A DNA stretch of 64,000 bases from Escherichia coli (GTDB taxonomy: Bacteria > Pseudomonadota > Gammaproteobacteria > Enterobacterales > Enterobacteriaceae), in assembly GCF_050920415.1 (NCBI RefSeq), contig NZ_CP169309.1. One strand, written 5' to 3'. Below the pieces are notes generated by a model, which was not told where the DNA came from, did not search any database, and saw nothing but the letters and a program-made list of their open reading frames with translations. Of this stretch, positions 22,160-57,382 are shown piece by piece (positions within the stretch are counted from its first letter, which is position 1; every line of letters starts with the position of its first letter). A program made the position numbers and the translations under genes.

Positions 22160-22193
22160 GCTTCACCTCCGCAGAGGTCAAACGCTGGATGCA

Positions 22194-22278
22194 AAAAATC
22201 GCAGGTGCATCTCTGCATCTGTGAAGGGAGAAGAGAGTTTGGATTGTATGTGCGCATAAACGTCCCCGTTTAGCGCAG
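22194..22278. repeat. ~85-bp direct repeat, copy A (partner at 24128-24211, ~93% identical)
   Basis: AAAAATCGCAGGTGCATCTCTGCATCTGTGAAGGGAGAAGAGAGTTTGGATTGTATGTGCGCATAAACGTCCCCGTTTAGCGCA; contains imperfect hairpin GCGCATAAACG-TCCCC-GTTTAGCGC. Confidence 0.75.
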
Positions 22279-22353
22279 AAGTCACCGGAGTTGTTCAAGC
22301 TCCAATGGCATGATTATGGCTGGTTGATTATTGGAAATCAAATGTGCTGAAAA

Positions 22354-23098: not shown

Positions 23099-23707
23099 TT
23101 ATTGCAACAGATTCTGACGGAAATATGGTAACACACGACTCCACTTATCATCCTGCCACGGTTGGAATTTTACATGCGCCGTTTCTCTGGCAAGGATTTC
23201 TCGCGCCCTGTTGAGTATCCGAGGATATTCTTGTTCGATTGAAGTGAATCTACCTGCTTCGCGATGCTCTGCGACCTGAAGAAGGGGCGTAACGTTCTGG
23301 CAGGCGGTTAACATCGTATCACTTGCTCGCCATAACCAGGCGAGTGTGCAAAGTTCGTTATCAGTGAATTGTTTTGTGATTGGGGATTGTTGAACTTCTC
23401 GATCGAGAATATCCAGAACCCAGCGGCGGAATTCTTTGGCCACAGGAGTACGAGCAAACATGGCGATCAAATGGGCTCCGCGAAGGCTAAATACTCGAGA
23501 CTCCTGCATTCCACGAGGGGTGGTCACTTTGACCACCCTTGTCATCATATCTGTGAATTCATCTGAGTGCCGAGAGTAAATGCGCTGAACTGCTTTATCG
23601 TCCGCATATTCCAGTGCTAAACCAACTTCAGTGGCAGTAAGCCAAATTCTGTTATTGTGGCAAATCGGGGTAAACGTCGTTTTGTGGAATGCTAATTGAG
23701 TAGTCAT
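23099..23707 (-). CDS. Bro-N / antirepressor-like domain protein
   Basis: Track ORF 202 aa MTTQLAFHKTTFTPICHNNRIWLTATEVGLALEYADDKAVQRIYSRHSDEFTD...; N-terminal region resembles Bro-N/KilA-N phage regulatory domains (pattern recognition only). Confidence 0.55.
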   Translation of the reverse strand: MTTQLAFHKTTFTPICHNNRIWLTATEVGLALEYADDKAVQRIYSRHSDEFTDMMTRVVKVTTPRGMQESRVFSLRGAHLIAMFARTPVAKEFRRWVLDILDREVQQSPITKQFTDNELCTLAWLWRASDTMLTACQNVTPLLQVAEHREAGRFTSIEQEYPRILNRAREILARETAHVKFQPWQDDKWSRVLPYFRQNLLQ

Positions 23708-23970
23708 AGTATCACCTCATCAGGTTAACCATCACCACCAACGACGCCAATCGACTGGTGGTGAACTGTGTAAGGTTGGCGTAACCGGCTACTCAAACCC
23801 GGCGCTTCCGAAGAAGCCCTCACACAGCCCACCATAATTTGGGCATAGCCGTGCTTAGCGCACAAAAAAACCGCTTAACGCGGTATGCGTTGAGTAGTAT
23901 CCCGGGACGCCAATCCCGTGTGCCGATTTTGCGGCAACGCACAGAATATAGCGCCGGATAAATCATGTCG

Positions 23971-24060: not shown

Positions 24061-24127
24061 ATCACCTTTAGCCGCCAGACGAATAGAGACTCCCAATTCT
24101 GGCTGTCGAAGTAAAACACCGAATGTA

Positions 24128-24211
24128 AAAAATCGTAGGTGCATTTCTGCATCTGTGAATGGAGATGAGAGTTTGGATTGTGTGTGCGCATAAACGTCCC
24201 CGTTTAGCGCA
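24128..24211. repeat. ~85-bp direct repeat, copy B (partner at 22194-22278)
   Basis: AAAAATCGTAGGTGCATTTCTGCATCTGTGAATGGAGATGAGAGTTTGGATTGTGTGTGCGCATAAACGTCCCCGTTTAGCGCA; about 6 mismatches versus copy A. Confidence 0.75.
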
Positions 24212-24519
24212 ACCCCACCACCGGGTGTTCAGGCCGACAGTAACTATATTATTCCCTACTGATTTTTGAAAATCAAAGGTCTTTATACGTCACACGAGAG
24301 CAAATATTTCCGAAGAAGAAACCTTTCGCCTTGAAAGGATAAAGAGTTCATTTCATAAATTGAAATATTCAATAAGAATATTGCAAAAAATGAAATTATT
24401 TACTAGCGAGTCTATCTAACTGATAATTATGAAGATTGTAAGCGGTAGCAATCACCCGCATACACATTGAACAGGATTTAATACAAAACGTCTTAAATTG
24501 TCCGTAAGGAATAGCACGA

Positions 24520-26022
24520 ATGACTCAAACTCCTCTATTACTTGCAATCATATTTTTATTGGTTGTTCTTGTTCTTTATATAGCTGCAATCAAACGCATC
24601 AAAAAAATACAATTAGAATTAAGTGATAGCAATCAAAAAAATGAAGAATACAAATCTCGCTTTGCAGATTATTTTAATGTAGAAGAAGAATGTAAGAAGC
24701 TTATTGAGAAAACAGAGCAAGAATGCTCCATAATAAAAGAAGAATCCCTAAAAGTAAAAGAAAATGCCAATAATGAACTAACAAACACCATTGAAAAAAT
24801 GGATGGTATCAATAAACAAATCCAAGAGCTAAGAAGAACTTATAAAGAGAAGAAAGAAATATATGATAAACTAGTAAGGCAAATTTCTATTTATTCAGAA
24901 GATGTTGAGCTAGCCGAACTAGGATTTTACGAACCTCATTTTAATTTTGAAGATTCAGAGCAATTTAAAAACAAAATAAAATCCATCAGGGATGAACAGA
25001 AATTAATGCTGCGGGATAAAACCCACTCTGGCGCAGTATATTGTACAACCCAATGGACTGTTGAAGGCTCTCGAGCAGAGGGTAAAAAAATGACAGACAG
25101 AAATATCAGGCTAACTACTAGAGCATTTAATAATGAATGTGATGCTGCAATTAGCAATTGCACGTGGAAAAACATCACTAAAATGGAAGAACGCATCACA
25201 AAGGCATTTGAGGCCATAAATAAACTAAACGAGCAAAATCACATATATATAAACACTAAATACCTCAATAAAAAACTTGAGGAATTGTGGCTTACCCATG
25301 AATATCGTGAGCAAAAACAGAAAGAAAAAGAAGAACAGGCAGAAATAAGGGCACAAATGAGAGAGGAGGAGCGTGCACAACGAGAAATAGAAAAGGCCAT
25401 GCAAGACGCAGAGGCAGAAGAGCGCCGTTATAAAAAAGCAATTGAAGCTGCAAGAAAGGAAATGGAAAAAGTTACTGGTGACATGAAGCAGCGCCTCGAA
25501 AATCGCATTGCCGAACTAGAACAGAGTTTGTCGCAGGCTGAATCAAAGCATCAAAGAGCATTATCCATGGCACAACAAACCAAACAAGGTCATGTTTATA
25601 TTATTTCGAACATAGGTTCTTTTGGGGAGAATGTTTATAAAATAGGCATGACACGACGTCTTGATCCGCAAGACCGTGTAAATGAGCTCGGTGATGCATC
25701 TGTTCCTTTTATTTTTGATGTACATGCCATGATTTATTCGGAGGACGCTCCATCATTAGAAAAAAAACTACATGATGTCTTCGATAAAAAGAGAGTCAAT
25801 CTTGTAAATCGTAGAAAAGAGTTTTTCTATGTTACTCTGGATGAGATCAAAGAAGCTGTTAAAAAACACTCTGATTCAGAAATTGAATTTATTGAGACAG
25901 CAGTCGCAAAAGACTTTAATGAGTCATTGGCTATTCGTAATCATGAAAATAAAAAAAGTGACAACAGCAACTCATCAATTATACCTGAGCGAAAAACCCC
26001 AGAGTTTGCAGATGCAATTTAA
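24520..26022 (+). CDS. membrane-anchored coiled-coil protein with C-terminal GIY-YIG/T5orf172-like domain (DUF4041-like architecture); candidate defence moron
   Basis: Track ORF 500 aa: N-terminal TM helix (LLLAIIFLLVVLVLYIAAI), ~300 residues Lys/Glu-rich coiled coil, then GHVYIISNIGSFGENVYKIGMTRRLDPQDRVNELG...EKKLHDVF...RKEFFYV; RBS AAGGAA; strongly AT-rich; opposite strand to flanking phage genes. Confidence 0.8.
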   Translation: MTQTPLLLAIIFLLVVLVLYIAAIKRIKKIQLELSDSNQKNEEYKSRFADYFNVEEECKKLIEKTEQECSIIKEESLKVKENANNELTNTIEKMDGINKQIQELRRTYKEKKEIYDKLVRQISIYSEDVELAELGFYEPHFNFEDSEQFKNKIKSIRDEQKLMLRDKTHSGAVYCTTQWTVEGSRAEGKKMTDRNIRLTTRAFNNECDAAISNCTWKNITKMEERITKAFEAINKLNEQNHIYINTKYLNKKLEELWLTHEYREQKQKEKEEQAEIRAQMREEERAQREIEKAMQDAEAEERRYKKAIEAARKEMEKVTGDMKQRLENRIAELEQSLSQAESKHQRALSMAQQTKQGHVYIISNIGSFGENVYKIGMTRRLDPQDRVNELGDASVPFIFDVHAMIYSEDAPSLEKKLHDVFDKKRVNLVNRRKEFFYVTLDEIKEAVKKHSDSEIEFIETAVAKDFNESLAIRNHENKKSDNSNSSIIPERKTPEFADAI

Positions 26023-26573: not shown

Positions 26574-27271
26574 ACAGTTGCTCCTTTCAGTCCGAACTTC
26601 GCTTTGATTTCTGCGATCTTCGCCAGAGCCTGTGCACGATTTAGAGGTCTACCGCCCATGACAGGAAGTTGTTTTACTGGTTCAGGTATCGCCTCACCAC
26701 GGTTAATTCGCGCGGTCATACAAGTCAGTTCATCGGCAGCCTTGCGCCGTAATTCCGCATCAGTAAGCGCATTGGCCCGCATGTTCTGATACAGGTTGGT
26801 AACCAGCCAGTAGTGCGCGTTTGATTTCCACGGATAAGACTCTGCATCTGGATACAGGCCACGTTTCCGGCAATACTCGTAAACCATATCAACCAGCTCG
26901 CTGGCGTTTGGCAGCCCGGCGGTAACGGATGCTTCTTCCCGGCACCAGGCAACAAACTGCCCGGGTGATGGCAGGAATGGTCGATTCTGCCGACGGGCTA
27001 CGCGCATTCCTGCGTCAACCTGTTCCATCGTGGTGATCCCGTTTTCCCGGAAAGCCAGAACCCACTGGCGGCGGATTTCGTTCAGTTCGTTCTGGTCCCG
27101 GTTAGCCAGGCTCGCCGGGAAAGTTGCCAGTAACTGGCTGAACACACCATTGATGATCTGCGCTACCTGTTGTACCTGCGGCTTTTCGTCGTACTGTTCC
27201 GGCATGTTGTTGGCGATCCGGCGCATCTGCTCACGGTCAAAGTTAACCATCTGTGCGGCGATGTTTTTCAT
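26570..27271 (-). CDS. P: replication protein P (DnaB helicase loader, lambda P-like)
   Basis: Track ORF 233 aa MKNIAAQMVNFDREQMRRIANNMPEQYDEKPQVQQVAQIINGVF... Confidence 0.9.
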   Translation of the reverse strand: MKNIAAQMVNFDREQMRRIANNMPEQYDEKPQVQQVAQIINGVFSQLLATFPASLANRDQNELNEIRRQWVLAFRENGITTMEQVDAGMRVARRQNRPFLPSPGQFVAWCREEASVTAGLPNASELVDMVYEYCRKRGLYPDAESYPWKSNAHYWLVTNLYQNMRANALTDAELRRKAADELTCMTARINRGEAIPEPVKQLPVMGGRPLNRAQALAKIAEIKAKFGLKGATV

Positions 27272-28287
27272 AAATCCACCCCGTAAATCCAGTCAGTGTT
27301 TGTCAGGTCGAGTTTTGATTTTCCGGCTATCACGCCAGCCTGTTGCTTGTTACGGTTGATTTCGAGTTGGGTCCACTTGTCGCGGAGTTTGGCCGGACTT
27401 AGCACGTTACCGGACCAGAAGTTGTCCTGGCATGCCCAGCGGAACAGCACGCACATGTCGCGGTGGTTACGGCCGTCACGTTCACGCATCAGGCGGATAT
27501 CGTTAGCCCACCCTGCAAAATTCGGTTTTCTGGCTGATGGCGCGATGGTCTTCACCATGTCAAACATCCACTCTGCGGCGGTCAGGTCTTCTGCTGTCCC
27601 CCACCTGCTGCCGCTCTGAATTGCAGCATCTGGTTTCTCCACAGGAAGATCGTTTTCTGGTTGGTCAGAGGATTCGCCAGAATTCTCGGACGAAAAAGGT
27701 TTTATATTGTCTTTTGTTAGTTTGTCTTTTGTGTTTACCTGATTCGGGTAAGTGCCTTTACCTGATTTGGGTAAACTTTTCTTACCTGATTCAGGTAAAT
27801 TTACCTCTTTCAGGTAAACTTTATTTTTCTTACCTGATTCGGGTAATGTTGACCATTCACTGACCACATTATTAATGCCGATATTCCGCCCGCTCTGAAT
27901 AAAAATCCCACGCTTTACCAGAACACTTTTTGCAGCAGAACACTTGTGCGGCAATATCCCGGTCAACTCGGAAAGTTGCTCGTTGCTCACCCAATCCAGT
28001 TTTTTATTAAAGCCATATGTTTTGCGCATGACAGCCAGGAAGACCAGAAGCTGGTGCTGTGTTAATCCGGCCAGCATCACAGCTTCCAGCAACTCATTTG
28101 CAATGCGCGTATAACCATCATCGAGATCTGCCACGCGCGGCTCCTTTTGTGCCGCATCCGGCACTGGAAAATTGAATATCTCAGCAGTGTTTGCCATAAT
28201 TCCTCCCGCAATGAGTGTGTTACGATTTGCACCTGAAAGTCGGTTCTGTTCCCGCAGACCGACTTTCGCCATTTCTGAACCTGTCAT
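27268..28287 (-). CDS. O: replication initiator O (lambdoid O-like; origin iterons inside the gene)
   Basis: Track ORF 339 aa (start uncertain; internal Met at MANTAEIFNF...); C-terminal part resembles the lambda O P-interaction domain; iterons at 27735-27846 lie within the coding sequence. Confidence 0.8.
   Translation of the reverse strand: MTGSEMAKVGLREQNRLSGANRNTLIAGGIMANTAEIFNFPVPDAAQKEPRVADLDDGYTRIANELLEAVMLAGLTQHQLLVFLAVMRKTYGFNKKLDWVSNEQLSELTGILPHKCSAAKSVLVKRGIFIQSGRNIGINNVVSEWSTLPESGKKNKVYLKEVNLPESGKKSLPKSGKGTYPNQVNTKDKLTKDNIKPFSSENSGESSDQPENDLPVEKPDAAIQSGSRWGTAEDLTAAEWMFDMVKTIAPSARKPNFAGWANDIRLMRERDGRNHRDMCVLFRWACQDNFWSGNVLSPAKLRDKWTQLEINRNKQQAGVIAGKSKLDLTNTDWIYGVDL
27698..27846. 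repeat. ori: replication origin: five palindromic iterons (TACCTGATTCGGGTA-like) plus adjacent AT-rich segment
   Basis: Copies at ~27736-27750, 27759-27773, 27783-27797, 27802-27816, 27831-27845; AT-rich stretch 27698-27734 on the downstream side relative to O. Confidence 0.65.
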
Positions 28288-28823
28288 ATTGCCCCCAGCA
28301 TGGTGGTCACCATCGCCATTAATGGACCAGCCAGATCCGGGTCCACACGAAACATCGACACAATACCTTCACTCATTTCCTTCAGTTTCTGGTGGCGTGG
28401 TGCGTTGAGAATGACAGCCTGTTTTGCCTCACTGAGTTCCTTTTCCATTTCAGCCAACCGAGTCATGAAGCTATCCTGCTCAACCAGGTAACCGCGATAT
28501 TCCAGCGGTAGTACCGCCAGAATTGCCGGGGTCAGTTCACGCACGTTATTTCGGTATTTTTCAGAATCGAATTTGTTATCGAGGAAGCGGAACAGCTTCT
28601 GGCGTGCACGGCTGACATCATCAGGGAAATCGATGGTGCCGTCGCCCTGCTCCCGATACTCATTCACAATGAGTGCGGCAACGACATCCTGATTATCTAC
28701 AGCCGACCAGGCGCGGACGGCATCACGGATTTTTTCGTGGCCTGGAGCTTGTTTTGTTTGAGAACGATTTATCACCGCAGTCGGAATAAATCCGCTAGTC
28801 TGTTGGTATGTAAGTGGTTGCAT
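28284..28823 (-). CDS. YdaT-family protein (occupies the cII position)
   Basis: Track ORF 179 aa MQPLTYQQTSGFIPTAVINRSQ...ALIVNEYREQGDGTIDFP...RELTPAILAVLPLEYRGYL; resembles Rac YdaT by recollection. Confidence 0.5.
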   Translation of the reverse strand: MQPLTYQQTSGFIPTAVINRSQTKQAPGHEKIRDAVRAWSAVDNQDVVAALIVNEYREQGDGTIDFPDDVSRARQKLFRFLDNKFDSEKYRNNVRELTPAILAVLPLEYRGYLVEQDSFMTRLAEMEKELSEAKQAVILNAPRHQKLKEMSEGIVSMFRVDPDLAGPLMAMVTTMLGAI

Positions 28824-28892
28824 AATTGACTCCTTTAGTTTGAATTGACTGTTAAGTTGATTGCTTATTGTTAAAGAGCGTGAAATGGAAAT

Positions 28893-29123
28893 TTAAGCTG
28901 CGTTCTTTTCGGTGTGTGGAAACAACTTCGGAAGATCCGGGCGAATCTGGTATGCCTTCACAACTCCACCAGTAGCCGTAACAATGCTGCCGACATGTTC
29001 AGGGGATACCTTTGCTTTGTTGTGAAGCCACTTATAGACGGCCTGCTGTGAAACTTCGCAGGCATCGCCTAGTTTCTTTTGTGAACCAACGATATTGATC
29101 GCTGTTTTGATTGCTGGGTTCAT
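28893..29123 (-). CDS. cro: Cro/YdaS-type HTH regulator (cro analogue)
   Basis: Track ORF 76 aa MNPAIKTAINIVGSQKKLGDACEVSQQAVYKWLHNKAKVSPEHVGSIVTATGG...; divergent from the repressor gene. Confidence 0.65.
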   Translation of the reverse strand: MNPAIKTAINIVGSQKKLGDACEVSQQAVYKWLHNKAKVSPEHVGSIVTATGGVVKAYQIRPDLPKLFPHTEKNAA

Positions 29124-29227
29124 AACAACCTCCGTGGTTAATCCGAATCAAGATTAAAACTATGGTTGTTTTTAGTCAACAACCATTTTCGTTTGATGAA
29201 ATAAAACCTTGGTTGTACATTTGATCT
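29124..29227. promoter_or_regulatory. immunity-region operator/promoter region between divergent cro-like and cI genes
   Basis: Inverted repeats with half-site TGGTTGT/ACAACCA (e.g. ATGGTTGTTTTTAGTCAACAACCAT); same half-site recurs in the putative OL/PL region. Confidence 0.5.
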
Positions 29228-29917
29228 ATGAAAACAACACTCTCAGAAAGACTTAAAGAAGCCAGATTAGCGCGAGGCCTTACACAAAAGGCGCTTGGGG
29301 ATTTGGTCGGGGTTAGCCAAGCTGCTATTCAGAAAATCGAAACAGGGAAAGCTAACCAAACAACTAAAATCGTGGAGATCGCGAACGCTTTGGGTGTGCG
29401 CGCAGAATGGTTATCTTCTGGCGTTGGAAATATGTCAGACAGTACAGTGCAACCAATACAATCAACTGTCAGCCATTCCAAATACTTCAAAATTGACGTT
29501 CTTGATATAGAAGTCAGTGCCGGGCCAGGTGTAATCAACCGTGAGTTTGTAGAAGTTCTACGCTCGGTTGAGTACTCGTTTGACGATGCTCGTCACATGT
29601 TCGATGGCAGGAAGGCGGAAAATATCCGCATCATTAACGTGCGAGGTGACAGCATGTCAGGGACGATCGAACCAGGTGACCTGCTGTTCGTTGATATCAC
29701 TGTTAAATCTTTCGACGGTGATGGCATCTATGCGTTTCTGTACGACGACACTGCCCATGTAAAACGTCTTCAAATGATGAAGGATAAGCTGCTGGTTATC
29801 TCTGATAACAAGAGCTACTCGCCGTGGGACCCGATCGAGAAAGACGAGATGAACCGGGTGTTCATATTCGGTAAGGTCATTGGAAGCATGCCGCAGACGT
29901 ACAGGAAGCATGGTTAA
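29228..29917 (+). CDS. cI: CI-type repressor (XRE-family HTH + S24 LexA-like autopeptidase domain)
   Basis: Track ORF 229 aa MKTTLSERLKEARLARGLTQKALGDLVGVSQAAIQKIETGK...GDSMSGTIEPGDLLFVD...KRL; HTH and Ser/Lys-dyad motifs. Confidence 0.85.
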   Translation: MKTTLSERLKEARLARGLTQKALGDLVGVSQAAIQKIETGKANQTTKIVEIANALGVRAEWLSSGVGNMSDSTVQPIQSTVSHSKYFKIDVLDIEVSAGPGVINREFVEVLRSVEYSFDDARHMFDGRKAENIRIINVRGDSMSGTIEPGDLLFVDITVKSFDGDGIYAFLYDDTAHVKRLQMMKDKLLVISDNKSYSPWDPIEKDEMNRVFIFGKVIGSMPQTYRKHG

Positions 29918-30146: not shown

Positions 30147-30527
30147 ATGAGAAAAATCCTAATCGCTGCCATGATGGCATCTGTATTGGCTGGGTGTGCT
30201 TCTTCAGGCAACCAGCAACTCAAAAATGAAACTGAAATTAGTGTCCAGTCTAAACTTCAGGAAGGTAAAACAACCAAGAATGAGGTTAAATCTTACTTTG
30301 GTTCTCCTGATGCTGTTTCATATACTGACAGTGGAAACGAGATCTGGAAGTACGCCTTTGCAAAAGTAAAAGTTAATGGCACCACTTTTATTCCATTCTA
30401 TGGATTATTCCATAATGGAACGAACGGTACGAAAAAAGAACTTACTATTCTTTTTAACGATGACACGATTAAGAAATACACAATGTCAGAAACCCAAATA
30501 AACTCGAAATCAGGTTGGGCTGACTGA
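30147..30527 (+). CDS. lipoprotein of unknown function, located directly downstream of cI (rex position)
   Basis: Track ORF 126 aa MRKILIAAMMASVLAGCASSGNQQLKNETEISVQSKLQEGK...; lipobox LAGC; AT-rich; followed by a terminator. Confidence 0.7.
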   Translation: MRKILIAAMMASVLAGCASSGNQQLKNETEISVQSKLQEGKTTKNEVKSYFGSPDAVSYTDSGNEIWKYAFAKVKVNGTTFIPFYGLFHNGTNGTKKELTILFNDDTIKKYTMSETQINSKSGWAD

Positions 30528-30535
30528 TAATCATA

Positions 30536-30560
30536 CCCGGCAACCGCGCCGGGTTTTCTT
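30536..30560 (+). terminator. putative rho-independent terminator after the lipoprotein gene
   Basis: CCCGGCAACCGCGCCGGG followed by TTTTCTTTTCC. Confidence 0.55.
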
Positions 30561-30684
30561 TTCCTCCCCCTCATAACTCATACCGTCCAAAAAACCACCA
30601 CACCTCACTTCAGTTATCGCTATGCGATGCAAGTCACAAAATAAATCCATCCTAAATACAACCAGTTATATTTAAAACAACCGA

Positions 30685-30731
30685 CAAAACAACTTTTGTT
30701 GTTGACGATAAAACAACTATAGTTTTAAATA
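30685..30731 (+). promoter_or_regulatory. putative PL promoter with overlapping OL operators
   Basis: TTGACG (30702-30707), 17-bp spacer, TTAAAT (30725-30730); flanked by AACAACTTTTGTTGTT and AAAACAAC matching the OR half-site. Confidence 0.4.
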
Positions 30732-30803
30732 AATTCATCGCAACGACACAACGATACGGTAACCACCTGTTTCACCGTGGCGATGACCGCTTAGATCCGC
30801 AGT

Positions 30804-31214
30804 TTGAATTTCAGCAGGCTTCGGGGAGTGCGAGGGGTGAAACGGACGCGTGAACGTCGGTGTGACCAGCTGAAATCAACACAACACTTTATACCTCAGT
30901 CGCTTCAACGAGGCGGCTTAGTTATGACAACCGGCGGCCATCCACCGCCTGAATACGCGCAGAAGTCTCTATATGTTCAGCAGCCCAGCTTACGGGCAGG
31001 AGTTTTTATGGTTCATCAACATTACGGAACGCAGACCGTTAATCGCGGTGCGGTCATGCCAGGAATGCTGGTCAAACACAAAGATGGTACCTGGACTGCA
31101 TCAGCTAATTTACGCGGACGGCTTTATCTGCATCGCGGCATCGAGCGCACTTATACCCGTGATTTGCTCGTGGAAGTTTTTCTCGACGGACGCGGTAACG
31201 GCCTCAATCACTAA
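30804..31214 (+). CDS. hypothetical early-left protein; possibly an N-type antiterminator if a non-ATG start is used (ATG-initiated product would be 30924-31214)
   Basis: Track ORF 136 aa with TTG start; in-frame arginine-rich segment [12 protein letters not shown] resembles N-protein ARM motifs; first ATG ([14 protein letters not shown]...) has GAGG about 10 nt upstream; ends 75 nt before gam. Confidence 0.4.
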
Positions 31215-31289
31215 TCCCCTTTCCTGTTTTCCTAATCAGCCTGGCATTTCGCGGGCGATATTTTCACAGCCATTTTCAGGAGTTCAGCC

Positions 31290-31586
31290 ATGAACGCTTA
31301 TTACATTCAGGATCGTCTTGAGGCTCAGAGCTGGGCGCGTCACTACCAGCAGATCGCCCGTGAAGAGAAAGAGGCAGAACTGGCAGACGACATGGAAAAA
31401 GGCCTGCCCCAGCACCTGTTTGAATCGCTATGCATCGATCATTTGCAACGCCACGGGGCCAGCAAAAAAGCCATTACCCGTGCGTTTGATGACGATGTTG
31501 AGTTTCAGGAGCGCATGGCAGAACACATCCGGTACATGGTTGAAACCATTGCTCACCACCAGGTTGATATTGATTCAGAGGTATAA
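31290..31586 (+). CDS. gam: Gam (RecBCD inhibitor), short GamS form
   Basis: Track ORF 98 aa [52 protein letters not shown]... Confidence 0.9.
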
Positions 31587-33689: not shown

Positions 33690-33787
33690 GCATGAAAAAC
33701 AAAATCATCATGGAGCTACAGGCTCCTTTTTTATTATTCGCATTCACCCTCAAGCGTATTAACCAACAATTCAGGGATTAATGAAAG

Positions 33788-34006
33788 ATGGCAGACATCA
33801 TTGATTCAGCATCAGGAATTGAAGAATTACAGCGCAACACAGCAATAAAAATGCGCCGCCTGAACCACCAGGCTATATCTGCCACTCATTGTTGTGAGTG
33901 TGGCGATCCGATAGATGAACGAAGACGCCTGGCCGTTCAGGGTTGTCGGACTTGTGCAAGTTGCCAGGAGGAGATCGAACTTAAGAACAAACAATGGGGA
34001 CTGTGA
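33788..34006 (+). CDS. DksA/TraR-family C4 zinc-finger protein
   Basis: Track ORF 72 aa MADIIDSASGIEELQRNTAIKMRRLNHQAISATHCCECGDPIDERRRLAVQGCRTCASCQEE...; CxxC...CxxC motif. Confidence 0.75.
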   Translation: MADIIDSASGIEELQRNTAIKMRRLNHQAISATHCCECGDPIDERRRLAVQGCRTCASCQEEIELKNKQWGL

Positions 34007-34053
34007 TGGCCTCAAAGCAGCAAATTTCAACATCGTCCAACTGAGGTGTAAAA

Positions 34054-34332
34054 ATGTTCAGAATCATTTTTCCTAACACCTGGTACGTCGACCACCACGG
34101 CACTCCCTGCAAAATCCTGCGTTCTACCCACAACAAAGTTCACTACATCCGAAAAGGCAGAACATGTATCGCCAGCATGTTCCGCTTTAATCATGACTTT
34201 GAACCTGTGAATAAAGCTGATGCAGATCGGATAGCAGAAGAGATCGAAACGGCAGAACACATTAAGAAGTTACGTGACATGCGTTCAAAAAGCAGAGGTA
34301 ACCATGGAATCATACAGCCTCACACTCGATGA
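34054..34332 (+). CDS. hypothetical protein
   Basis: Track ORF 92 aa MFRIIFPNTWYVDHHGTPCKILRSTHNKVHYIRKGRTCIASMFRFN...; no family recognised. Confidence 0.4.
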   Translation: MFRIIFPNTWYVDHHGTPCKILRSTHNKVHYIRKGRTCIASMFRFNHDFEPVNKADADRIAEEIETAEHIKKLRDMRSKSRGNHGIIQPHTR

Positions 34333-34675
34333 GGCCTGTCAGTTTCTTAAGATATCCAGACCAACCGCCACCAACTGGATACGAACAGGCCGCCTACAGG
34401 CAACACGTAAAGATCCAACCAAGCCAAAATCTCCTTACCTCACAACACGGCAAGCCTGCATTGCGGCGCTTCAGTCTCCGCTGCATACTGTCCAGGTGAG
34501 CGCGGGTGATGGCATAACAGAGGAAAGAAAATGTCACTCTTCCGCAGAAATGAAATATGGTATGCCTCGTATTCGCTCCCGGGCGGGAAACGAATTAAGG
34601 AATCTCTTGGCACAAAGGACAAGCGGCAAGCTCAGGAGTTGCACGACAAGCGAAAAGCAGAACTCTGGCGAGTAG
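34304..34675 (+). CDS. xis: excisionase-like protein (AlpA/Xis-type HTH), overlapping int start
   Basis: Track ORF 34274-34675; [37 protein letters not shown]... has the HTH pattern of AlpA/Xis-family excisionases; the open frame runs ~145 nt into int. Confidence 0.5.
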
Positions 34676-35694
34676 AAAAGCTAGGGGATTTACCTGATGT
34701 CACTTTTGAAGAGGCCTGCCTAAGATGGCTTGAGGAAAAAGCTGATAAAAAATCTCTCGATTCAGATAAAAGCCGGATTGAGTTCTGGCTTGAACATTTT
34801 GAGGGTATAAGGCTTAAAGATATCTCGGAGGCAAAGATTTACTCTGCTGTAAGCAGAATGCATAACAGAAAGACGAAAGAAATATGGAAACAGAAAGTTC
34901 AGGCCGCCATCAGGAAAGGTAAAGAACTGCCTGTTTATGAACCAAAGCCAGTATCAACTCAGACAAAGGCAAAGCATCTTGCCATGATAAAGGCCATTCT
35001 CCGTGCTGCAGAACGCGACTGGAAGTGGCTGGAAAAAGCGCCTGTCATCAAGATACCAGCGGTCAGAAACAAGCGAGTCAGATGGCTGGAAAAGGAGGAA
35101 GCAAAACGCCTTATTGATGAGTGCCCCGAACCACTGAAATCTGTCGTCAAGTTTGCGCTGGCAACTGGTCTGAGAAAGTCGAACATCATAAATCTGGAAT
35201 GGCAACAAATCGACATGCAGCGACGAGTTGCCTGGGTGAATCCAGAAGAGAGCAAATCAAACCGCGCCATTGGTGTGGCGCTAAACGATACCGCCTGTAA
35301 AGTGTTGCGTGATCAAATAGGCAAGCATCACAAATGGGTGTTTGTACATACCAAGGCGGCTAAGCGAGCAGATGGAACATCAACGCCTGCGGTCAGGAAG
35401 ATGCGCATCGACAGCAAGACATCATGGCTATCAGCTTGTCGTCGTGCAGGAATTGAAGATTTCCGTTTCCATGACCTCAGACACACCTGGGCAAGCTGGC
35501 TGATTCAGTCAGGCGTCCCATTATCAGTGCTTCAGGAAATGGGCGGATGGGAGTCCATAGAAATGGTTCGTAGGTATGCTCACCTTGCGCCTAATCATTT
35601 GACAGAGCATGCGAGGAAAATAGACGACATTTTTGGTGATAATGTCCCAAATATGTCCCACTCTGGAATTATGGAGGATATAAAGAAGGCGTAA
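34531..35694 (+). CDS. int: tyrosine site-specific integrase
   Basis: Track ORF 387 aa [47 protein letters not shown]...[39 protein letters not shown]; catalytic R..HxxR..Y signature; ends 15 nt from the tRNA 3' end. Confidence 0.95.
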
Positions 35695-35730
35695 CTGATT
35701 GAATTGTAATGGCGCGCCCTGCAGGATTCG
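35695..35730. other. prophage-host junction (att site overlapping the 3' end of argU); exact core not determinable without the distal copy
   Basis: int stop at 35694 and tRNA 3' end (CCA) at 35710; the second att copy is off-window. Confidence 0.5.
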
Positions 35731-35786
35731 AACCTGCGGCCCACGACTTAGAAGGTCGTTGCTCTATCCAACTGAGCTAAGGGCGC
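35710..35786 (-). tRNA. argU: tRNA-Arg (anticodon UCU)
   Basis: Reverse complement reads GCGCCCTTAGCTCAGTTGGATAGAGCAACGACCTTCTAAGTCGTGGGCCGCAGGTTCGAATCCTGCAGGGCGCGCCA; D- and T-arm consensus, anticodon loop CUUCUAA, 3' CCA. Confidence 0.9.
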
Positions 35787-49007: not shown

Positions 49008-49205
49008 TGCCGGATGCAGCGTGAACACCTTATCCGACCTACTAATCCGGTACCCATTGTAGGCCTGATAAGACGCGTCAAGCGTCGCATCAGGCATGGT
49101 GCGCCGATTACCGGATGCGGCGTGAACGCCTTATCCGACTACCAATCCGGTACCCATTGTAGGCCTGATAAGACGCGTCAAGCGTCGCATCAGGCATGGT
49201 GCGCC
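49008..49205. repeat. REP/BIME element: two tandem ~95-bp units of paired REP palindromes
   Basis: GCCGGATGCAGCGTGAACACCTTATCCGACCTAC...TGTAGGCCTGATAAGACGCGTCAAGCGTCGCATCAGGCA repeated twice with few mismatches, between convergent purK and ybcF. Confidence 0.75.
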
Positions 49206-57298: not shown

Positions 57299-57340
57299 GT
57301 CATACCACACGCCTGATTATTTTTAGCTATGTTGGATTTT

Positions 57341-57367
57341 GCCACGGTTTATACCGTGGCTTTTTTT
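57341..57367 (+). terminator. putative rho-independent terminator after allE
   Basis: GCCACGGTTTATACCGTGGC followed by TTTTTTT. Confidence 0.6.
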
Positions 57368-57382
57368 GTAGTCAATTCAGGT

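Follow-up and report, generated by a model that had tools for sequence, protein, structure and literature searches.

The DNA considered here is a stretch of 64,000 nucleotides from Escherichia coli (contig NZ_CP169309.1 of assembly GCF_050920415.1), which we call the window and to which all positions refer. It carries two adjacent minus-strand genes, a ydaS-like gene (28893..29123) and a ydaT-like gene (28284..28823), whose products are a YdaS-family analogue of Cro and a YdaT-family protein occupying the cro/cII slot of a lambda-like prophage. Very probably the pair serves a functional temperate phage of the lambda-like kind as the Cro/CII half of its immunity switch, and is not a toxin module. 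The first gene, predicted to open the operon of the right promoter (PR), encodes 76 amino acids (aa) behind a GGAGG Shine-Dalgarno sequence. The second, a putative lysogeny-establishment regulator of the type of phi80 CII, encodes 179 aa and has AAGGAG 7 nt before its start. Both reading frames are confirmed on the minus strand at the positions first given for them, and their translation contains EYREQGDGTIDFP and TPAILAVLPLEYR, the two peptides quoted in the original prediction, which had been made from the sequence alone and had likened the pair to YdaS and YdaT of the Rac prophage.

The family assignment of both proteins is clear. In Pfam, the 76-aa protein matches YdaS_toxin (PF15943, E=7.9e-17), with weaker matches to P22_Cro (1e-4) and HTH_3, and the 179-aa protein matches YdaT_toxin (PF06254, E=7.3e-30) over residues 67-154, which cover model positions 1-90 of 92. 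PF06254 is carried by all 120 of the homologues of the 179-aa protein among the matches listed. In PHROGs, the smaller protein falls in phrog_35, "transcriptional repressor" (E=1.3e-27), and the larger in phrog_163, "CII-like transcriptional activator" (E=1.4e-66). The best solved relatives of the 76-aa protein are Cro proteins (3bd1 and 5w8y). By profile, then, the larger protein belongs to the YdaT family, and the smaller belongs to the YdaS/Cro-like helix-turn-helix (HTH) family both by profile and as the first gene after PR beside the repressor operators. The Pfam search that the original prediction had proposed thus bears out the YdaS/YdaT-like identity. The likeness to Rac holds at the level of the family, but the closest characterised relative of the larger protein is the phi80 cII product (66% identity) and not Rac YdaT (34%). 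Among the database entries there are four, of 233-248 aa (P0002, P0003, P0007 and P0012), that extend the YdaT-like protein N-terminally; P0002 and P0007 have both the YdaS and the YdaT Pfam domains, and one extended entry sits in a eukaryotic proteome set. Such entries are more likely artefacts of gene calling or assembly, and contamination, than real fusions.

Around the pair, the genes are arranged as in a lambdoid immunity region seen in reverse. Upstream and divergent is a cI-like repressor gene (29228..29917, plus strand) encoding HTH and S24 autopeptidase domains, with matches to phrog_4 (E=8.7e-73), to phrog_6201, "CI-like repressor", and to LexA/UmuD-type C-terminal domains. The 104-bp gap between the cro-like and cI-like genes (29124..29227) was identified as the right operator (OR) region by repeat search and sequence reading. 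It contains a perfect palindrome, ATGGTTGTT-N7-AACAACCAT, at 29162-29186, 39 bp upstream of the cro-like ATG, which is unique in the window where 0.05 occurrences are expected by chance. The palindrome overlaps a PR-like promoter on the minus strand, TTGACT-17-TAATCT, and extra half-sites lie at 29124-30 and 29210-16. Directly downstream of the pair on the minus strand are O-like, P-like and Ren-like genes. The 179-aa gene is thus placed after the cro-like gene, divergent from the repressor and upstream of replication genes. The same order of repressor, cro-like, YdaT-type and replication genes is found in eight other phages; it recurs in phi80, mEp237, HK639, PHB10, CobraSix and Klebsiella phages despite differing repressors and replication modules. 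No lambda-type cII is present, and gene order, sequence and fold agree with the proposal that the pair sits between OR and O in place of cII.

Over the 1051 bp tested around the pair, the DNA is 100% identical to that of Escherichia phage PhiR26_1, for which the host on record is E. coli K-12 MG1655. The same DNA is matched in 2223 of 5426 complete E. coli genomes. The window thus holds a lambda-like prophage of an ordinary and very common kind, and the phage identical to it at this region is viable. The pair itself is of an already known kind; the matching phage record (PV340555) annotates the two genes as Cro and cII and the repressor as cI.

The competing explanation is that the pair forms a module resembling a type II toxin-antitoxin system, with the YdaT-like protein as toxic effector and the YdaS-like HTH protein as antitoxin or autoregulator. 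It draws on the Pfam names YdaS_toxin and YdaT_toxin, on the RefSeq product name of the larger gene in E. coli genomes, "toxin YdaT domain-containing protein", and on the growth inhibition caused by overexpressed Rac YdaS and YdaT (PMC5700377, PMC5700373). Against this, the fold predicted for the 179-aa protein is that of a DNA-binding HTH transcription factor and matches no known toxin fold, and neither protein has a defence-system match in PADLOC. In NCBIfam, no model matches the 179-aa protein, and the sole match from the pair is to a carph-isopro domain, at a sub-threshold 20 bits, which is not a toxin-antitoxin family. The two genes are cistrons 1 and 2 of a long early right operon running into O and P, and not a self-contained two-gene cassette. 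The relatives have also been studied directly. From the gene context of Rac YdaS and YdaT, Jobling argued that they are Cro and CII and should not be taken for toxins because they are toxic when overexpressed; overproduced lambda CII, too, is toxic (PMC5917428). For prophage CP-933P, Jurenas et al. showed that the pair is not a toxin-antitoxin system and that YdaT is not toxic (PMC8630535). Wons et al. traced the toxicity of overexpressed Rac YdaT to activation of the host gene rcsA (PMC11879457). Because of this published work on the Rac and CP-933P relatives, the toxin-antitoxin reading can be regarded as superseded for the YdaT family, and for the pair in the window we consider it highly improbable. 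The original prediction had left the choice between lysogeny regulator and toxic effector undecided; for the relatives, as distinct from the window protein, the answer is a regulator (PMC8630535, PMC9986795, PMC11879457).

The predicted fold of the 179-aa protein fits a regulator of the YdaT family. The monomer model is all-alpha, with a POU-like HTH domain of five helices towards the N-terminus followed by a long helix. Residue R79 is in an invariant column of the alignment of homologues (A1) and aligns with R57 in the HRW motif of Rac YdaT. The equivalent recognition-helix arginine, Arg60 in CP-933P and R57 in Rac, is needed for DNA binding (PMC9986795, PMC11879457). The CP-933P structure solved by Prolic-Kalinsek et al. 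is a tetramer with POU-like HTH domains on a four-helix bundle (PMC9986795). From these relatives, we infer that the 179-aa protein binds DNA, forms a tetramer, activates a promoter and has a role in lysogeny. Homology to lambda CII itself was considered and rejected, as hhalign of alignment A1 gave a probability of 0.7% and there was no match to Pfam Phage_CII. The protein is accordingly placed, on these comparisons, as an analogue of lambda CII by position and not as a member of its family.

The switch would then work as follows. After infection or induction, PR (minus strand, ~29150-29180) would transcribe the cro-like and cII-like genes, O and P. The 76-aa Cro-like protein would bind the OR operators that it shares with the cI-like repressor, turning down PR and the promoter for repressor maintenance (PRM). 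The 179-aa YdaT-type CII would bind DNA at or near the cro/cII junction and activate a weak promoter on the opposite (plus) strand. The resulting transcript would read antisense through cro into cI, so that repressor would first be made and lysogeny established. A short antisense RNA of the M3/oop type, from a promoter over the O start codon, would probably limit cII expression. Growth inhibition upon overexpression would be a side effect of a strong transcription factor.

The candidate region for the promoter for repressor establishment (PRE) is the cro/cII junction (28824..28892, plus strand), on account of its repeats and by analogy to CP-933P and Rac, where PRE of the former and the YdaT boxes of both sit at the ydaS/ydaT junction (PMC8630535, PMC9986795, PMC11879457). 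In CP-933P, YdaT switches on an otherwise silent PRE-like promoter, PRE933P, between ydaS and ydaT (PMC8630535), and the footprinted site is TTGATT-N6-AATCAA (PMC9986795). In Rac, the box is ATGATTCATGAAAATCAA, lying over the ydaT start codon, and YdaT activates 29-fold a reverse promoter inside ydaS that feeds racR (PMC11879457). We searched the whole window for TTGATT-N6-AATCAA with up to 3 mismatches; as a positive control, the same search recovered the Rac box at 11/12. A 10/12 box lies at the PR transcript start (29134-29151). The junction contains a direct repeat, TTGACT-N6-TTGATT (28845-28862, on the cI-sense strand), and then a weak promoter-like TTGATT-18-TGAAAT. Nothing else in the window shows this direct-repeat pattern, which was, however, defined with that site already in view. 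In addition, AATTGACT is present twice at the junction, at 28824 and 28843. Inside cro, the only plus-strand match in the promoter scan is TTCACA-17-AACAAT at 28957-28985, which is no more than chance would give; its position recalls that of the Rac reverse promoter inside ydaS.

Several results weigh against the proposal that the pair is a Cro/CII switch acting through this junction. YdaT boxes are not enriched in the window (41 matches versus 36.9 expected), and the junction has no good one, the best being 9/12 at 28857-74. The scan for consensus promoters called none at the junction. No YdaT box with at most 1 mismatch was found in the whole phi80 genome, and the phi80-type CII may therefore recognise another sequence. 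The same ydaT allele (at least 97% identity) is found behind two unrelated cro/repressor modules among IMG/VR loci (L004-L083), with the breakpoint exactly at the ydaT ATG, corresponding to position 28823, so that a site in the junction would not be inherited together with the protein. Nothing convincing as a CII-type site or promoter was found before xis/int (33700-34600). Finally, the 179-aa protein is ~40 aa longer than the characterised YdaT proteins of 140 aa, relative to which it has a predicted-disordered N-terminal tail of 27 residues and two extra C-terminal helices of ~40 residues.

The second cro module has an 11/12 YdaT box (TTGATAATGACAAATCAA) spanning its cro ATG, and its cI shares the C-terminal S24 half with the window cI. 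In most phi80-type phages, only 2-30 bp separate cro and cII, so any site must sit in coding DNA, where protein constraint masks a signal. In a comparison of nine diverse junctions for a shared site, the recurrent match at +48 (ATGATAAAYCG...TCAA) lies on the conserved MINRAQ codons, where a DNA signal is inseparable from protein constraint, and it was not retained. An inverted repeat at the 5' end of the ydaT-like gene, GATTTAT-N13-ATAAATC (28766-28792), was also dropped, being absent from phi80 and other phages. As for the extra length of the protein, the N-terminal 28 residues are kept as a peptide despite synonymous codon changes in phi80, CobraSix, mEp237, HK639 and the Klebsiella phages. 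The tail is therefore translated and the start codon of the 179-aa protein is correct. The two tails may conceivably control the stability of the protein, as in lambda CII.

The best matches to the YdaT box are elsewhere, in the nin region. An exact TTGATT-N6-AATCAA is found just once in the window, at 22324-22341, and a further box, at 24259-24276, matches at 11/12. Each of these boxes, TTGATT-N6-AATCA(A/G), overlaps the -35 hexamer and spacer of a minus-strand promoter. The first promoter, TTGATT-17-CATAAT (22313-22341), precedes ybcN-ybcO-rusA-ylcG-Q; the second, TTGATT-17-AATAAT (24248-24276), precedes isrK, a C4 antisense RNA and a Rha-family gene. This combination of promoter and palindrome also occurs in phage 82, where it is annotated as a putative promoter, and in HK639, CobraSix and KO-TP1; in HK225 the arms vary symmetrically (TTGATA...TATCAA). 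IMG/VR was scanned for the box-plus-promoter pattern, and cII was typed only at loci with enough upstream DNA. Of these loci, 20 have a YdaT/phi80-type cII, 4 have a lambda-type cII, and 3 have neither detectable type. An exclusive link between the nin box and YdaT-type cII was rejected on this account, as 4 of 24 typed loci have the lambda type.

Such boxes could mean that the YdaT-like protein is a transcription factor whose main targets are outside the junction, at the nin promoters or at host promoters, with establishment of cI being secondary or brought about differently. Repression of the nin promoters would delay expression of Q and of the antirepressor, and action on the host would resemble that of Rac YdaT at rcsA. 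The position of both boxes over a -35, their conservation in the phages just named and the 20 YdaT-type loci speak for it, as does the fact that Rac and CP-933P YdaT cross-bind each other's boxes with only ~30% identity between them (PMC11879457). On the other side, at four loci a perfect box occurs together with a lambda-type cII while a YdaT gene is absent, phi80 itself lacks such a box, the co-occurrence of box and cII type may reflect shared ancestry of linked modules, and TTGATT is simply also a good -35 hexamer. We regard this explanation as quite unlikely. A different use of the same boxes would be as second targets of a CII that still acts in the immunity switch. In that case, CII bound to the nin palindromes would silence transcription of the Q-proximal and antirepressor type while the lysogeny decision is being made. 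This too we consider unlikely; the IMG/VR counts hint at another CII target through which Q would be held back, but they do not come near to proof, and the four lambda-type loci, the lack of a box in phi80 and the kinship of the loci all count against it. Were it true, it would be a protein-operator counterpart of the CII-dependent paQ antisense control of lambda, and YdaT from a resident cryptic prophage such as Rac could cross-talk with nin control.

Downstream of the two nin promoters is a duplicated leader of ~90 nt (22185-22309 and 24120-24215, minus strand). Within it are a hairpin with a GGGA loop, GCGC-TAAACG-GGGA-CGTTTA-TGCGC, whose stem has three compensatory changes in HK639, HK225 and KO-TP1, and the start of a short reading frame (MRT[HY]NPNS...). 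Copy 1 includes an inverted repeat, GTCACCGGAG...CTCCGGTGAC, which the phage 82 record describes as a "possible regulator-binding site". One possibility is that the leader controls the ybcN-rusA-Q operon as an RNA element. Two Rfam families score above gathering on the minus strand nearby, a C4 antisense RNA at 23754-23839 (74.8 bits) and isrK at 23864-23936 (58.7 bits). They are directly upstream of the Rha-family gene (23099-23707) and form with it an antirepressor control cassette of the P1/Gifsy type, an insertion into the nin region. A gene for a 500-aa protein (24520-26022, plus strand) is found between ren and the nin genes, running against the early right operon. Its product matches the PD-Lambda-1 defence protein of PADLOC (E=1.9e-198), and PV340555 carries the same annotation.

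The start of the O-like replication initiator gene (27268..28197, minus strand) needs comment. Its longest reading frame starts at 28287, overlapping the cII-like stop codon. The O-like gene probably starts instead at the ATG at 28197, because the match to phrog_277 begins only at residue 31 of the long form and a strong Shine-Dalgarno sequence with ATG, GGGAGG-N5-ATG, is found there. The arrangement is as in phi80 gene 15. With that start, ~86 bp separate the ydaT-like stop codon from O, and the gap holds a gene for an M3/oop-like antisense RNA (28172..28277, plus strand), identified by promoter scan, RNA fold and alignment. Its promoter, TTGAAT-17-CATAAT (28172-28200), scores 9/12 with an extended TG, and the -10 overlaps the O start codon. 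A terminator-like hairpin at ~28235-28267 (fold -24.6 kcal/mol, z=-3.0) leads into a T-rich tail. The unit aligns with the annotated M3 RNA of phi80, with the "M3-like RNA" of HK639 and also with mEp237 and PHB10, and the phi80 record describes M3 RNA as a homologue of lambda oop. Rfam matched no family in the immunity region, the M3/oop-like RNA being without a model. The locus is new to this analysis and not to the literature. PV340555 uses the long form of O, which hides it.

On the far side of the repressor, a block resembling OR/PR, GTTGTTGACGATAAAACAACTATAGTTTTAAAT, is at 30688..30735 on the plus strand. Sequence reading and gene order identify it as the left operator and promoter (OL/PL), reading towards kil-gam-bet-exo. 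Between cI and PL, the slot of rexAB is filled by a lipoprotein gene (30147-30527, plus strand). Between PL (~30700) and kil/gam, no reading frame for an N-like antiterminator is evident in 30530-31290, and none is annotated in PhiR26_1. The integrase gene (34531-35694) is abutted at its end by a tRNA-Arg(TCT) gene (35710-35786, minus strand), which marks the junction of prophage and chromosome. The host DNA beyond this junction carries the small RNA genes STnc480 (57305-57371) and naRNA4 (49062-49140).

The significance is mainly one of annotation. RefSeq still gives a "toxin" name to a gene that ~40% of the complete E. coli genomes carry, whereas sequence, fold, synteny and published experiments on relatives point to a CII-type lysogeny regulator with a Cro partner. 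The word "toxin" in the YdaS and YdaT family names is a historical mislabel. Beyond correcting that label, what remains of value is the lead given by the unexplained boxes at the nin promoters. To our knowledge, the published experiments with YdaT-type proteins all used defective prophages, and for that reason a viable phage plating on K-12 would be a good system for studying a YdaT-type CII in a real lysis-lysogeny decision.

Among known systems, phage phi80 is the closest. Its cII was defined genetically by clear-plaque mutants. The gene is named cII in X13065, the early-region record of 1988, and again in JX871397, the complete genome (PHI80_49). The identity of 66% holds from end to end (179-180 aa), with the N-terminal tail and C-terminal extension included, and the PHROG family is the same. 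As in the window, phi80 cII comes after a Cro-like gene, of ~73 aa, and before M3 RNA and an O-like gene. The Cro-like partners are unrelated in detail, with only 12 of 26 residues aligning, and phi80 also has a different repressor and different operators. Between the cro-like and cII-like genes there are 69 bp in the window and 30 bp in phi80.

The YdaT proteins with experimental characterisation are more distant. CP-933P YdaT (PDB 8bt1; homologue 3c4r) is a marginal sequence match to the window protein (phmmer E=5.5e-4), which has ~27 extra N-terminal residues and ~40 extra C-terminal residues in two helices. In CP-933P, YdaS and the repressor bind intergenic operators, with binding of OR by YdaS observed by electrophoretic mobility shift assay (PMC8630535). 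Unlike CP-933P, the window lacks a canonical YdaT box at the junction; CP-933P is a defective prophage, whereas the window phage is viable. In Rac, YdaS is 30% identical to its window counterpart, lower than the corresponding figure for YdaT. Rac shares with the window the divergent arrangement relative to the repressor and the recognition-helix arginine. It differs in that YdaT has 140 aa and is followed by different replication genes (ydaU and ydaV), in that RacR is without an S24 domain, and in that its YdaT box overlaps the ydaT ATG, there being no such box at the start of the window gene. Lambda Cro and CII occupy the same map slot and would follow the same logic, an activator of repressor synthesis expressed from PR with an oop-like antisense RNA after its gene. 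Lambda CII binds a direct repeat, TTGC-N6-TTGC, whereas the tetramer of the YdaT relatives has a 222 symmetry suited to inverted repeats (PMC9986795).

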